From Eledone cirrhosa (taxonomy: Eukaryota): DNA of 64,000 nt. The stretch covers positions 309,380,001 through 309,444,000 of the forward strand of contig OZ024740.1 of NCBI GenBank assembly GCA_964016885.1, read 5' to 3'. The translations under genes were made by a program, and so were the position numbers. The notes under the pieces are model-generated. The model was not told the origin of the DNA and made no database searches. It worked only from the letters and a program-made list of their open reading frames with translations. Within the stretch, counting starts at the first letter, position 1; each line of letters starts with the position of its first letter. Below are positions 1,799-63,120 of this stretch, piece after piece.

Positions 1799-2245
1799 AT
1801 AAAATGTTTTGAACATAGTTTTGATTATTCTGTAATTTATATTCCGGCTCTGTAAAACATCTGATGTATTTACATTGAGCTATTTTTCCTACTGGTAATA
1901 AGGTAGTAATAAATTACTGACCTTTCCTGTTTATAATTATATATAGTGTATATATAAGTATAAATAATATTATTATTATTATATATATATAGGTATGTAT
2001 ATATATATATATAGGTATGTCTATTATTTCTCCCGAATGAAACAGTTCTAGTCCTGTAGAAGTCGTTTCTATATTAAATATATATATATATTTATATATA
2101 CATATACACATATGTATGTATGTATATCTGTATGTGGTTGACAACTGAAGGAATAGAGTTCTCAATACCGAAGTAGAGTTTTAATATTCATTTTATTAAG
2201 GCTAAATCAGGGTCATCAGGCAGATAACAGTTCTCAAAACATTTA

Positions 2246-2377
2246 ATACTTTACAATTGTTTCAACGCATAACTCAGTAGAATACAAAGGATAAACATAA
2301 TAGAAAAAAAAAATAGGAAAAATACGTATATATTAAACCTAGCATGTATAGCAAAAGATGTATCTCTTCAGAAATAT
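2246..2377 (-). ncRNA. Hammerhead ribozyme motif with about 100-nt domain II
   Basis: rc: atattt CTGAAGA gatacat...atgcgtt GAAAC aatt GTA aagtat; stem I 6 bp including one GU. Confidence 0.65.
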
Positions 2378-3336
2378 ACAAGTCAAATCAGCAAAAAGTC
2401 CACAAAAGCCCATACTCACATTTATTTGGGGGTTAACTTCAGTGAAATTTTAGGGGATCATTGGTTAGTATGACGTCAAAGACATTGCAGAGAATAATAG
2501 AAAATAACATACAAAGGGGGGTAACTTTCACTAAAATTTTGTAAAAGATTACACATTTGTATCATATGTATTTATCGATTTAAGATTTTAATAGAGATAC
2601 AAATAATTATTATTTAAATTATATACATGCATATCCATACTCCTACACACCCATGCATTCATATGATTACACACACATATACACATACAGAAAATGCACA
2701 CACTTAATAGTAAAATGCTAGTTGTACAAAGAAATACTCATATATATACACACAAACACACATACATATATATTTATATGTATATATATATATACACATA
2801 TAAATACACACATACATACATACATACATATATATATATATATATATATAAATACACACATGATGGCTGCAAACTCTGCTAAGAGTATTGCAATTGCTTG
2901 TCAGATTACAGAAAATGGTGTACTTTTAGGCTACAGCCAGCCACTTGAACCAGTAACACAACTTGAACAAGCATACATATACAGGTATATATACACAGCT
3001 ACCTAAACATATATATGAGCATAAACATATACATATATGAGTATACATTCAAGTATAGACAGAATTATAATTGAGAAATACATAAAATTTAATAGCTTGG
3101 TATATAGGTACTCATATGGTTTAGAAATAACTATGAGTAAGGGAAAAATAAAATATAATGGATTGAGATAGTATTAGCAGGTAGAATGGTAAGAGATCAA
3201 AATGAATTTTAAACATAGATACTGGTCTAACAAACAAGTTGAATAAATTAAATAAATCAGTGTGGATCTTATCTCCTATTAAAAAAAAAAGTATGCTAAG
3301 TGATGTGGACATACTATAATCAGTTCATTTTTATGA

Positions 3337-3552
3337 GTTAACTCTTTAGCTTTAAACCGGCTGTATCTGGCCAGAATTCTCTCACCACTTTCTGTTCAAA
3401 CCGGCCTTAACTGGCCACTGATACTGATTTTAAGGTATTATTCACAAAATAAATAATATCAAAATCTCATAGATTCAATATTATGTGAGGTGAAGCCTTT
3501 TCCACCAAAATACAATAGTATACATAGAGTAATGTAAATGCTAAAAGACTAA
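3337..3552. mobile_element. Degenerate TTAA-flanked MITE-like element
   Basis: ttaactctttagc...gctaaaagactaa imperfect terminal inverted repeats; resembles 31201, 34632, 50276. Confidence 0.35.
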
Positions 3553-3699
3553 GAGTTTACATAGAAAAAAAATCCTCATTTGATTTGCTACACTGTGACA
3601 TATATTTATGTAATACAAGCTTTTACACATTGAAATAATAGTATCTTTATGGCCTATTTTTGTATCTTTGTTTGTATGTATACATATCTATATGTATAT

Positions 3700-4700
3700 A
3701 CAGAAATGGCTTCTTCGGGACTAGAACTGTTTCATTCGAATAAAACAGTTCTAGTCCTGTTAAAGCCATTTCTATATTAAATCTTGTATATACTCTACTA
3801 TATTTGTCTTTGTGTTTGACATTTGTATATGTGTCTTGTGTGTATATGTGTGGGTTTGTATATTGTACTGTTGTGTCTTCCTATGCTGCTTGATACTTAT
3901 GTGTCCTATTCTGTCTTCTGTTATTAGTTTGTGGTGTTAGGGTGTATATATTCCATTCGTGTTTTCTGTTGAGGTTCAGTCTATTTTCTATTATTTGTGT
4001 GGCCTTTGTAATTTGTCTGAGCATTGTGTTGGTTCTTTGTATGGATAAGATCTTTACTTCTATGTTATCTATTGATCCCCCATGTTATAGTTTGGCATGC
4101 TGGTATCACACTGACGAGCTTTTCTCCTCCTTGAGTTCTTACTAGAGTTCCTTTGTCCTCTCTATTCAATGGGCTGTTTCACCTACATATGTCATTGTTA
4201 TGTTTATGCACCAACCCTCTGTACACCTTATTCTGTAGACTACATCCCTAGTTTCGCAGTTTACCTGTGGGCTTACCCTACACACTATACAGTTTCAATC
4301 AGTAGAAAGAATTCTTTCAAAAGGATGTGTCCTACTAATCAGGAATTTTATGGGAGTTGTTGGCTTTTCTATCACCTTAATTCTTAAATTCAGTTTATCT
4401 AAGGCTTTTTTCTAAAACTATACACAATCCAAGGGTATCACAGGCAAGCATGAAGTTGACCATCCCTATCTGCCTCTTAGTTTTTTCTATACTTTTTTCT
4501 ATACTGTATAGTGGGCAAATCCCACTTGGGTCATTCTCTATGATGGTTTTGAATTTAGTCATGGCTTCTTTGTACACCCTAGTCTCTTTGGCTGTATCCA
4601 GAAAACTGCATGCAGTGGATGAAGTGCTGTAAATGTCTCTCTAATTTTATTGGGTCACACATGTAAGACATGGTTTTTATCACTGTTAATATTTTCATTG
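3700..4700 (-). mobile_element. Penelope-like element 3' remnant (GIY-YIG endonuclease pseudogene plus 3' region)
   Basis: Manual minus-strand translation gives CIVCRVSPQVNCETRDVVYRIRCTEGWC...YVGETA and LRQITKATQIIENRLNLNRKHEWN with stops and frameshifts; ends in a hairpin at 3700-3775. Confidence 0.75.
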
Positions 4701-60600: not shown

Positions 60601-61079
60601 TACCAGTTCGAGACAAGCTCTACAGACATTTTAGCCCGGGCAGGGACCCTGCAAAAAAGATCTGTCCGAGGTGCGTGCGAGACGAAGAAACCGTCGCGCA
60701 CGCATTCATACAGTGCCCGGGCGGCACTGACCTGTGGGGCTATGTAGAACGACTATTGTCGCGGGTGGAACCAATCCGGTTGACCACCGAGTTCATTGTC
60801 ATGATCAAACCGCCACCCTCCTTCAAAAACGAAGGAGAGGCGGTTTTCCTTTGTGTGATAACTATGGCGAAAGAGGTTGTATGGTGGACAAGGTTGAAAG
60901 GGCTGAGGTCAGACACCTTTCTCTCCGGCCAACAACTGATTCTTTTTTTCAAATACCACTTTGGAAGAAGAATCAGGATGGAGAGAGAGGTGCTGTACCC
61001 CAGCAAGTTTTATGAAAGGTGGGTGAAAGTGGCGAGAATGGCCCGAGTGAATGGGCCTTCTCTCTATATCAGCCTGTAG
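57642..61079 (+). pseudogene. LINE ORF2 (AP endonuclease, RT, zinc finger) with two in-frame stops
   Basis: NVRG, GDWN, SYLD, SDH; KSPGLDG, DQSKAFDRV, RQGCPLS, YADD; CPRC..ETVAHAFIQC; stops at 60168-60170 and 60201-60203 in the same frame. Confidence 0.93.
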
Positions 61080-61129
61080 GTTGAGGAAAAGGAGGAGGAG
61101 AGGAAAGGAGTACAAACTCTTCGTACTCC

Positions 61130-61740
61130 TGGAGATGAGGGTTGCACATTTTTTTCGGGGGTATGTGTTACCCATATAAACTGTCTCCCCTATTGGGGAA
61201 AATCGACTAACTTTTTAAATTGCATTTGTGATAACATTTTACACGTTTTTATTGTATGTAAACTTCCCCCTTTGTATTTGTCCCCTTCTTTTGTGCCCCT
61301 GTGGCTAATAAAGAAACATATCTATCTATTGGAGATGAGGGTTGCACATTTTTTCGGGGGTATGTGTTACCCATATGAACTGTCTCCCCCTATTGTGGAA
61401 AATCGACTAATTTTTAAATTGCATTTGTGATAATATTTTACACGTTTTTATTGTATGTAAACTTCCCCCTTTGTATTTGTCCCATTCTTTTGTGCTCCTG
61501 TGGCTAATAAAGAAACATATCTATCTATCTATCTATTGGAGATGATGGTTGCACATTTTTTCGGGGGTATGTGTTACCCATATGAACTGTCTCCCCCTAT
61601 TGGGGAAAATCGACTAATTTTTAAATTGCATTTGTGATATTTACACGTTTTTATTGTATGTAAACTTCCCCCTTTGTATTTGTCCCCTTCTTTTGTGCCC
61701 CTGTGGCTAATAAAGAAACATATCTATCTATCTATCTATT
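61130..61740 (+). repeat. Triplicated LINE 3' UTR (about 200-bp units)
   Basis: Units start at 61130, 61330 and 61537; each ends ctaataaagaaacata(tcta)n. Confidence 0.95.
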
Positions 61741-61837
61741 TATCTCCAACAGGGGGCTCACACATGCGGCCCGCGAACTACTTATCTGTGGCCCGTGGTA
61801 GAACCAATATTTTATATCGCATTATAACTGGTGAAAA

Positions 61838-62055
61838 TAAGGTGGCGAGCTGGTGGAATCGTTAGCACATCTGGCGAAATGCTTAACGGTACTTCTTCTG
61901 TTTTTACGTTCTGAGTTCAAATTCCGCCGATCTCAACTTTGCCTTACATCCTTTTGGGGTCGATGAATTAAGTACCAGTTGTGTATTAGGATCGATGCAA
62001 TCGATCCCTAAACCCCAAATTTCATGTCTTGTTCCTATAGTAGAAATGAGTATAA
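61838..62055 (+). mobile_element. tRNA-derived SINE with flanking direct repeat
   Basis: gttcaaattccgccga..gccttacatccttttggggtcgat core; tataactggtgaaaat on both sides (about 61823 and 62051). Confidence 0.75.
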
Positions 62056-63120
62056 CTGGTGAAAATTTTCACGCACCACCACGTTTGGCCCACTGTGCCT
62101 CTCCTCCAGGACGTAATAGCCCTTTTGTGTCCTTGAGCTTGAGACCCCTCTTCTACCCCACCCCACATATATATTTTACTTTTTTTCTGTCTCTGGACTA
62201 CGCCCATGCTGGAGCATCACCTTGGTAGGTTATAGGGACGTCAACAAACCAACAAGCATTGGTGGGAGGGCAAACACAAGCGCAAAGACACAGACAGACA
62301 TATATACATATATACGACGGGCTTCTTTTAGTTTCGATCTATCAAATCCACTCACAGGGCTTTGGTCGGCTCAGGCAGTGGGACTGAACCCGGAAATATG
62401 TGGTTGGGAAACAAGCTTCTTGTCACACTGCATATATATATATATATATATATATATATATATATATATGTGTGTGTGCGTGCGTGTGTGTATAATATAT
62501 ATATTATACACACACACACACATATATATATATATAACTTTACGCACTTAAATATAAATGCATGTATATATATACAAATGTATAAATGCATAGCTAGCTA
62601 TATACATACGTAAATGTATGTATGTATATATGTATGTATGTATGTAGATTTATATATATGTATGTATATATGTATGTAGATTTATATATATATATATATA
62701 TATATATATATATATATATATATATATATATATATATAAAGGTTTACATATATATAAAGTCATAGATATATATGTGTTTTGCAGCGGGTCACGTTGTGGC
62801 TCAATGAAGAATTAATATATTAAATAATCAGAGCTATATATCATAAAACATGTCTATAGAATCACTAGATAAAATATATACCGTTTCCTCTCCCAATTAG
62901 CATAATTAACCATATTAAAAAATCAATTAGACCAAGCTCTAAGAATAAAGGCTTCTATGAAGAAATCTCCAACAAATAACCGAAAGCAGCCCCTTCGCGG
63001 CGGTTACGACGGAGTATTTATCGAACATTTCGACAGCATGTATAAATGGACCAGATATACAGTCAACTAAACATAATTAAGTGTAAAATAAACTTGGAAG
63101 AAATGTGTACATATTTATTT

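Follow-up and report, generated by a model that had tools for sequence, protein, structure and literature searches.

What is the short hairpin that recurs on both strands of a 64,000-nt stretch of the Eledone cirrhosa genome (OZ024740.1, 309,380,001-309,444,000; hereafter the window, within which all positions are counted), and what does it do? A preliminary description of this DNA listed twelve copies of an RCUC-stem-loop-UU-GAGY hairpin, placed five of them 3' of a hammerhead ribozyme, and suggested that the motif is undescribed and serves a reverse transcriptase (RT) as a binding or priming signal. All twelve sequences are at the positions and on the strands listed. Judged by sequence, the hairpin is part of Hydra-clade Penelope-like elements (PLEs), and the preliminary description overlooked that it occurs twice in tandem within the leader of these elements, where copies of the elements end next to one hairpin or the other.

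Our strict scan required RCTC, at least 3 stacked pairs, a T[TAC] bulge, GAG and a pairing end base. It gave 13 matches in the window; 100 versions of the window, dinucleotide-shuffled one 500-nt block at a time, gave 0.81 +/- 0.92 and at most 4, so we reject a chance origin of the hairpins. The scan finds 11 of the 12 listed sites, including 36591-36616(+), which matches strictly in an inner register (36597-36615). The site it misses, 2160-2179(-), is degenerate and ends in GAGA. It also finds 48306-48333(+) and 63826-63852(+), the latter without an adjoining element end and probably a chance match. A covariance model (R1) recovers all 12 sites, 9 of which were in its training set. The sites are not independent, since 1847 and 47157 are a pair from one family (B) and 41545 and 42317 a pair from another (A). 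Hammerhead cores on unbroken upstream sequence are confirmed at five sites (1847, 2160, 20596, 41545 and 42317), in agreement with the preliminary description, and the hammerhead GAAA, where present at these sites, is 62-73 nt upstream of the hairpin. At 62799 the hammerhead is ~360 nt upstream (about 300 nt in the feature list), four window copies are 5'-truncated 13-36 nt ahead of the hairpin, and two sites have no hammerhead core in the 230 nt upstream.

The association with hammerheads is also found in metagenomic Hydra-type loci. From 80 such loci, 29 without a hammerhead by our descriptor and 8 that end too soon were set aside, and in 26 of the 43 informative loci RCTC..GAGY lies 15-120 nt from the hammerhead GAAA (this count includes L260, which is a false anchor), compared with 1.85 in shuffles and 2 in a control of open reading frames (ORFs). 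A Pfam GIY-YIG control reached 3 hammerheads and is hence weak. Because the enrichment downstream of hammerheads holds in these loci, we reject the idea that the motif is a microsatellite artefact.

To describe the structure we used 24 dereplicated metagenomic hairpins chosen by position with no demand for pairing (L247, L258 and L260 were dropped as broken or mis-anchored). The bulge is TT in 16, TC in 5, TA in 2 and TG in 1, its first base is T in 24/24, and ACT follows in 21/24. The first pair above the bulge is Watson-Crick in 21/24 (TA 11, CG 9, GC 1) versus 10.8 in shuffles, and the second in 17/24 versus 7.1. When registers were compared, a 2-nt bulge gave 49/72 pairs and other registers 11-15. 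Across 31 families from the Eledone genome, the closing pair is GC in 15, AT in 14 and something else in 2, and the covariation score of a 34-row alignment, in which the sequences are related and the motif served as anchor, was reached by 0/500 shuffles. Two base pairs covary across families, and the 2-nt bulge starts with U. A selection from the Eledone genome made without a pairing demand was noisy, with 73 "families" of which many were chance or antisense, and we did not use it as support. The preliminary description had made the motif depend on enrichment downstream of hammerheads and on covariation in the upper stem; the former is seen in the metagenomic loci and the latter above the bulge. 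The bulge is asymmetric and invariably falls on the 3' side of the sense strand, and in most copies 9-28 nt separate the half-sites; this variable spacing and the asymmetry led us to reject a fixed double-stranded site. When five leaders were folded in context, the probability of the basal helix was 0.43-0.97 for the first hairpin and 0.03-0.97 for the second.

The motif is abundant in this 3.0 Gb genome, in which (TA)n is also abundant. Forty 10-kb samples taken at round coordinates contain 47 matches whose bulge is TT, TA or TC, the majority of them 40-80 nt ahead of a microsatellite. Of ten other helices searched with a TT bulge as controls, CAC/GTG gave 13 matches and the rest 0-6, while CTC/GAG gave 20. 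Extrapolating from 47 per 400 kb, about 5 of them by chance, the genome may hold a few hundred thousand copies. In a pooled set of loci we obtained 223 distinct matches in 48 clusters, 20 of them with at least two members.

We based the Hydra-clade assignment on diagnostic protein motifs. Family B, which includes the copies at 1847 and 47157, runs unbroken upstream to a GIY-YIG endonuclease (L053) and, in tandem copies, unbroken downstream to an ORF start (L034). A relative (L391) has an intact single ORF of 829 aa, with the RT followed by a C-terminal GIY-YIG endonuclease (YRDD at 352-355, YIG near 722), and contains RWR, DKT in place of DKG, CxCX5C, CxxC and CxH without CCHH. A decayed copy (P0001), for which a protein homology search gave no homologues, likewise has the CxCX5C linker, CxxC and CxH and no CCHH, and RWR is also found in families B and 2. 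The hammerhead and the insertion into (TA)n, two further Hydra traits, are both present. Craig 2021 (PMC8557442) describes the same set in the Hydra clade: RT plus C-terminal GIY-YIG, RW(K/R), DKT, CxCX5C, CxxC and CxH, together with a hammerhead, (TA)n targets, partial tandems, inverted 5' copies and a tail at one end. The tails are 61-141 nt here versus 30-40 bp in that study (PMC8557442). We dropped a Nematis-clade host, as the Hydra diagnostics of PMC8557442 fit instead. A CCHH-type (Neptune-like) endonuclease in L419 was rejected as the partner of the 62799 family because TA arrays lie between the two, which indicates a nested insertion. The link to a Hydra ORF is established for 1847/47157, 20727 and 25565, and not for 2160, 10359, 20596, 21344, 36591, 48306 or 62799. 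Family A (41545, 42317) consists of non-coding units of ~850 bp arranged in tandem. Many copies of Hydra-type ORFs have open frames of 714-915 codons (L391-L402 among them), so several families look young.

The motif can also be found in published consensus sequences of the clade. Among six Hydra consensi in File S7 of Craig 2021, read by eye, three have the exact motif: Hydra-2_Amil (coral) and Hydra-2_Ajap (sea cucumber) at the 3' end, and Hydra-1_Ajap at base 3, with a second copy in the leader. The match is near in Hydra-1_Crog and partial in Hydra-1_Amil, and no motif was seen by eye in Hydra-1_Obim. Our probing of the Naiad and Chlamys consensi was limited to five short strings.

Copies that read through the usual ends give the order of the unit as hammerhead, linker, hairpin 1, linker, hairpin 2 and ATG. 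Hairpin 2 is 67-141 nt past hairpin 1 in seven families of the Eledone genome (in family 7 the long hairpin 2 was paired by eye). In metagenomic leaders, the spacing is 61-83 nt; 12/13 loci have the hairpin and 8 have both by the strict pattern. In family 2, hairpin 2 was predicted from the long ends, which are at 48 nt, and then found 54 nt past hairpin 1. In family A the second site is degenerate. In family 4 and a relative (L395-L400, L404, L405), a GCAC/GTGC hairpin forms the second site; its loop is 5-6 nt long, the central pair is changed on both sides, and it has no bulge.

Where do copies end? Of the 261 ends in nine families that we mapped against read-through references, 65 precede hairpin 1, 193 precede the second site and 3 map to other places; the loci were partly chosen using hairpin-bearing queries, and alignment into TA blurs ends by a few bases. 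In other words, 258/261 ends are at most 25 nt upstream of a hairpin (the second hairpin being a variant form in two families), with family median offsets of 0 to -13 nt. For the seven families with a canonical hairpin 2 (172 ends), the counts are 51 before hairpin 1, 119 before hairpin 2 and 2 elsewhere. With a family B query that excludes the hairpin, 17 of 30 copies are long and 13 stop directly before the hairpin. Some ten other families also have short ends, 15/21 copies of family 2 have short ends and no hairpin, and copies stop 1-6 nt ahead of hairpin 1 in 6/10 comparisons of metagenomic pairs from the same family. The TATA-like sequence that the preliminary description noted ahead of the hairpin is present, as the AU-rich linker where short copies end, and is not evidently a promoter. 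In a Neptune-like family represented in the window at 39300-41243, 30/30 copies end at or near a single site without a preceding hairpin, and we saw no read-through copy. We also noted that the 5' junctions of ORF-bearing copies (L302-L330, L007) are often in the same linkers, before hairpin 1 or 2, which could be due to a stop at a bound RT or to microhomology.

The two end classes are paired in inverted insertions. Among 18 head-to-head pairs of family B, 2 were excluded for TA arrays between the arms; 12 of the others are long+short, none is short+short, and 4 are long+long with one arm reading into the ORF. If ends were independent, about half of the pairs would be mixed, so that 12/12 long+short has odds of ~2e-4 by hand arithmetic, with four of the 12 pairs drawn from a set selected for long ends. 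The same layout is present in the window. At 62799..62834(-), hairpin 1 is in the long arm of an inverted insertion, with the hammerhead at approximately 63120..63200(-) and an inverted short-end arm at 63354..63408(+) that halts at the hairpin start and enters (TA)n. Hairpin 1 of family B at 1847..1880(+) is preceded by a minimal type I hammerhead, predicted from sequence, with the core variant CCGAUGA (approximately 1751..1800, +). It is followed by the tail of the long-end arm (1881..1980, +), which enters (TA)n where hairpin 2 would come, and the inverted short-end arm (1061..1145, -) stops ~10 nt ahead of hairpin 1, with TA arrays between the arms. A third case is a variant hairpin with a 1-nt bulge at 23873..23892(-); it belongs to an inverted long+short pair (~23838-24030, hand-counted), where it lies on the long arm.

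Based on where the ends fall, we think it probable that the hairpin docks the element's RT so that cDNA would start in the AU-rich linker directly 5' of the hairpin. The RT binding or priming role proposed in the preliminary description therefore gains positional support from the end mapping, and it is still to be read as a proposal. From the observed order of parts, two end classes, pairing of arms and (TA)n targets we infer binding, priming, use of a dimer and an RNA state of the hairpin. A transcript that is tandem or reads through would carry the hairpin pair past the 3' UTR (untranslated region), the GIY-YIG endonuclease would cut both (TA)n strands, and one RT per hairpin would prime from one cut strand, using the TA likeness of the linker, after which the two cDNAs would be joined head to head. 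With two docked starts, the optional "tail" would comprise hairpin 1 and the linker as far as hairpin 2. On a more specific reading, which is possible and which we hold tentatively, a dimeric Penelope-type RT would dock on two 20-nt hairpins of a single RNA and prime the two strands of a double-strand cut simultaneously. The reconstituted Poseidon PLE of the anole (Frangieh 2024, PMC11167929) provides a precedent for several of these steps: on AT-rich DNA, cutting and extension take place on both strands, the RT initiates at two internal sites that delimit the tail and depends on RNA 3' of the start, and the protein is a predicted dimer (PMC11167929).

Several observations weigh against RT docking at an RNA hairpin, and some of them bear on its rivals. 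G-U and A-C counts are 6:5 and 15:15, so RNA is not favoured over single-stranded DNA. Hairpin 2 is unfavoured in 2/5 whole-leader folds (P 0.17, 0.03), and hairpin 1 is at ~0.45 in two. L252 has a hammerhead ahead of an ORF start and no hairpin, family 4 ends ahead of the shorter bulge-less GCAC/GTGC hairpin, one family has a 1-nt bulge, and the count of inverted pairs comes from a single family (B). The lack of a G-U excess would suit a motif that acts as DNA, as a cDNA hairpin or cruciform recognised by the GIY-YIG endonuclease in a tandem intermediate, with the linker 5' of the motif being cut and both ends arising by resolution. The tendency of 5' junctions toward the same linkers would suit it too, Craig 2021 (PMC8557442) considers endonuclease-mediated resolution the "most likely" origin of the tail, and Frangieh 2024 (PMC11167929) cites the tail as needed for recognition by the Penelope endonuclease. 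However, the tail bounds are RT start sites in the sole reconstituted PLE (PMC11167929), and an asymmetric bulge with half-sites so variably spaced is ill suited to a double-stranded site, so we consider resolution of DNA unlikely.

Transcripts could instead be cut or end just 5' of each hairpin, as at an RNA processing or termination signal, and be copied by end-primed target-primed reverse transcription. The 3' ends and some 5' junctions at linkers would be expected in this case, and the conservation of the core matches what one would expect of a nuclease site. Yet the anole PLE initiates internally on uncut RNA, where 3' extensions and ribozyme mutations are without effect (PMC11167929), and a long and a short arm in each insertion would need two differently cut RNAs every time, which makes this explanation quite unlikely in our view. 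A further rival is that microhomology between AT-rich linkers and (TA)n sets the ends by itself, while the hairpins serve ribonucleoprotein packaging, translation control, a promoter or hammerhead folding. The linkers are AT-rich, and microhomology alone could cluster ends there. End offsets differ between families (~0 to -13), and family A, which lacks a TA-like end at a perfect hairpin 1, never ends there: 0/60 mapped ends are at hairpin 1, 59 are before the degenerate second site, and two overlapping sets of 30 contain no short end. Family A and the AT-rich linkers also weigh against RT docking. On the other hand, the 258/261 ends fall in two windows that make up roughly a quarter of the reference stretches, and the second hairpin of family 2 was foreseen from long ends before it was found. 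We consider microhomology alone improbable, the least credible of these explanations.

The nearest known case to RT docking at these hairpins is the AC-rich stem-loop of Poseidon PAc (Frangieh 2024, PMC11167929). It is likewise 3' of a hammerhead, with two start sites bounding a tail, an AT-rich target, extension of both strands and a requirement for RNA 3' of the start. It differs in that PAc belongs to another clade, its sites are inside the ORF, and no conserved motif or repeated hairpin is defined for it in the published text (PMC11167929). Reading the printed PAc template RNA by eye, we saw no RCUC..UU-GAGY motif (PMC11167929). It does contain, by eye, a UCUC/GAGA hairpin after the +111-118 start, in the required region, which may be chance. 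A search of the supplement text of Frangieh 2024 (PMC11167929), which does not extend to figures S1-S2, found nothing. In Craig 2021 (PMC8557442), "hairpin" and "stem-loop" occur 0 times in the main text, and "hairpin" 0 times in the supplement text.

Stem-loops in the 3' tails of stringent LINEs (long interspersed nuclear elements; ZfL2 and UnaL2, PMC4176376, PMC1636434) are also short cis-acting hairpins shared by autonomous and non-autonomous partners, and they are bound by the RT protein (PMC4176376, PMC1636434). The LINE hairpin occurs once, on the 5' side of the priming site, is carried by every insertion and has a specific loop, whereas the PLE hairpin has a conserved base and bulge, a free loop, is doubled, and would be 3' of the start. 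A single hairpin in every copy, as in stringent LINEs, is not what we found, as the PLE hairpin is doubled and is absent from 13/30 family B copies. A conserved structure adjoining the element ends, as expected of a cis-acting hairpin that positions an RT, is what we found. Hepadnavirus epsilon and the anchoring helices of telomerase RNA hold an RT by a bulged or template-adjacent helix with an internal start, and priming in epsilon is templated from its own bulge. The likeness is one of kind, we claim none in sequence, and the ends here map outside the hairpin.

Family A resembles animal non-LTR (long terminal repeat) retrozymes (PMC7229834; bioRxiv 10.64898/2026.07.22.740005), which have a non-coding tandem unit, a type I hammerhead and proposed mobilisation by PLEs. 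No shared RT-recognition motif is named in the portions of these texts covered here (PMC7229834; bioRxiv 10.64898/2026.07.22.740005), whereas family A shares the hairpin with Hydra PLEs. Against Rfam, the 150 listed of 212 weak matches in the window are microsatellite and below the gathering score, and eight metagenomic loci gave 4 weak matches, none on the hairpin, so the preliminary view of the motif as undescribed stands insofar as no Rfam family matches it among those listed. It is also undescribed in the literature that we searched, which leaves uncovered Cervera and de la Pena 2014, Lunse 2017, the Arkhipova reviews and the Repbase notes. The kind of element is known; neither the motif nor its doubling nor its connection with both end classes seems to have been described.

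Protein-RNA recognition in PLEs, the tail at one end and the inverted arms are named as open questions by Craig 2021 (PMC8557442) and Frangieh 2024 (PMC11167929). Two hairpins, two starts and one insertion make a clade-wide hypothesis open to mutation tests, and the hairpin offers a sequence signature for annotating element boundaries and a link between non-coding retrozyme-like repeats and the PLE that mobilises them. If the dimer reading is true, the hairpin would be a portable signal that fixes the RT start, the tail and inverted repeats of PLE insertions would be explained in one step, and this would be the form that template anchoring takes in the sister lineage of telomerase.

The remaining copies in the window are as follows. 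The degenerate hairpin at 2160..2179(-) has a broken closing pair and is 40 nt past a half hammerhead core. Hairpin 1 is found in a 5'-truncated copy at 10359..10382(-), with the end ~79 nt downstream; at 20596..20620(+), with the end 58 nt downstream and a degenerate hammerhead core at 20491; in family 2 (Hydra-clade) at 20727..20750(+), with the end 48 nt downstream; and at 21344..21369(+), with the end 53 nt downstream. It is also found in family 4, a Hydra-clade family with intact ORFs elsewhere, at 25565..25583(-), with the end 43 nt downstream, and in decayed form at 36591..36616(+), with the end 53 nt downstream. In family A, hairpin 1 of the terminal unit is at 41545..41578(-), with the end ~60 nt downstream, and that of the preceding unit at 42317..42350(-), a spacing of 772 nt here and ~850 elsewhere; the family A hammerhead, with a long stem II, is at approximately 42400..42522(-). 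Hairpin 1 of a family B relative at 47157..47190(-) is 5'-truncated directly ahead of the hairpin, and the additional copy at 48306..48333(+), absent from the preliminary description, has its end ~62 nt downstream. In the hammerhead of family B (1756-1762 +), CCGAUGA replaces CUGANGA in most copies seen, and the family is high-copy. Different PLE families are stacked in shared TA arrays at 20596-20800 and also in L085 and L092, so that short truncated ends of unrelated families come to adjoin each other.

Other elements share the window. The Neptune-like PLE at 39300-41243(+) is decayed, with a CCHH-type endonuclease and a hammerhead at 41127. Its family shows a single class of end, which usually runs into (CA)n or (TA)n, and no variation of the tail in 30 copies. 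A decayed inverted pair at 10607-10997 carries two hammerheads, one per arm (10673 -, 10931 +), and the strict pattern found no hairpin in it. The inverted pair at 13815-14422 and 18410-19015 (608 nt, 97% identical) has TA-rich arrays bounding each arm. A Ty3/Gypsy-like LTR element at 42684-46938(-) sits in the family A tandem array. Its LTRs (42684-42992 and 46628-46938) are 96% identical, with a gag-like ORF at 45820-46668 and an RT/RNase H/integrase ORF at 43006-45294. A LINE-like ORF with endonuclease and RT is at 57627-61079(+), split at ~60170-60204. About 12 copies of a SINE-like repeat (short interspersed nuclear element), which may be an octopus SINE, are at 6128-8212, 15711-15900, 30852-31062, 34131-34552, 37030-37375 and 61871-62047.

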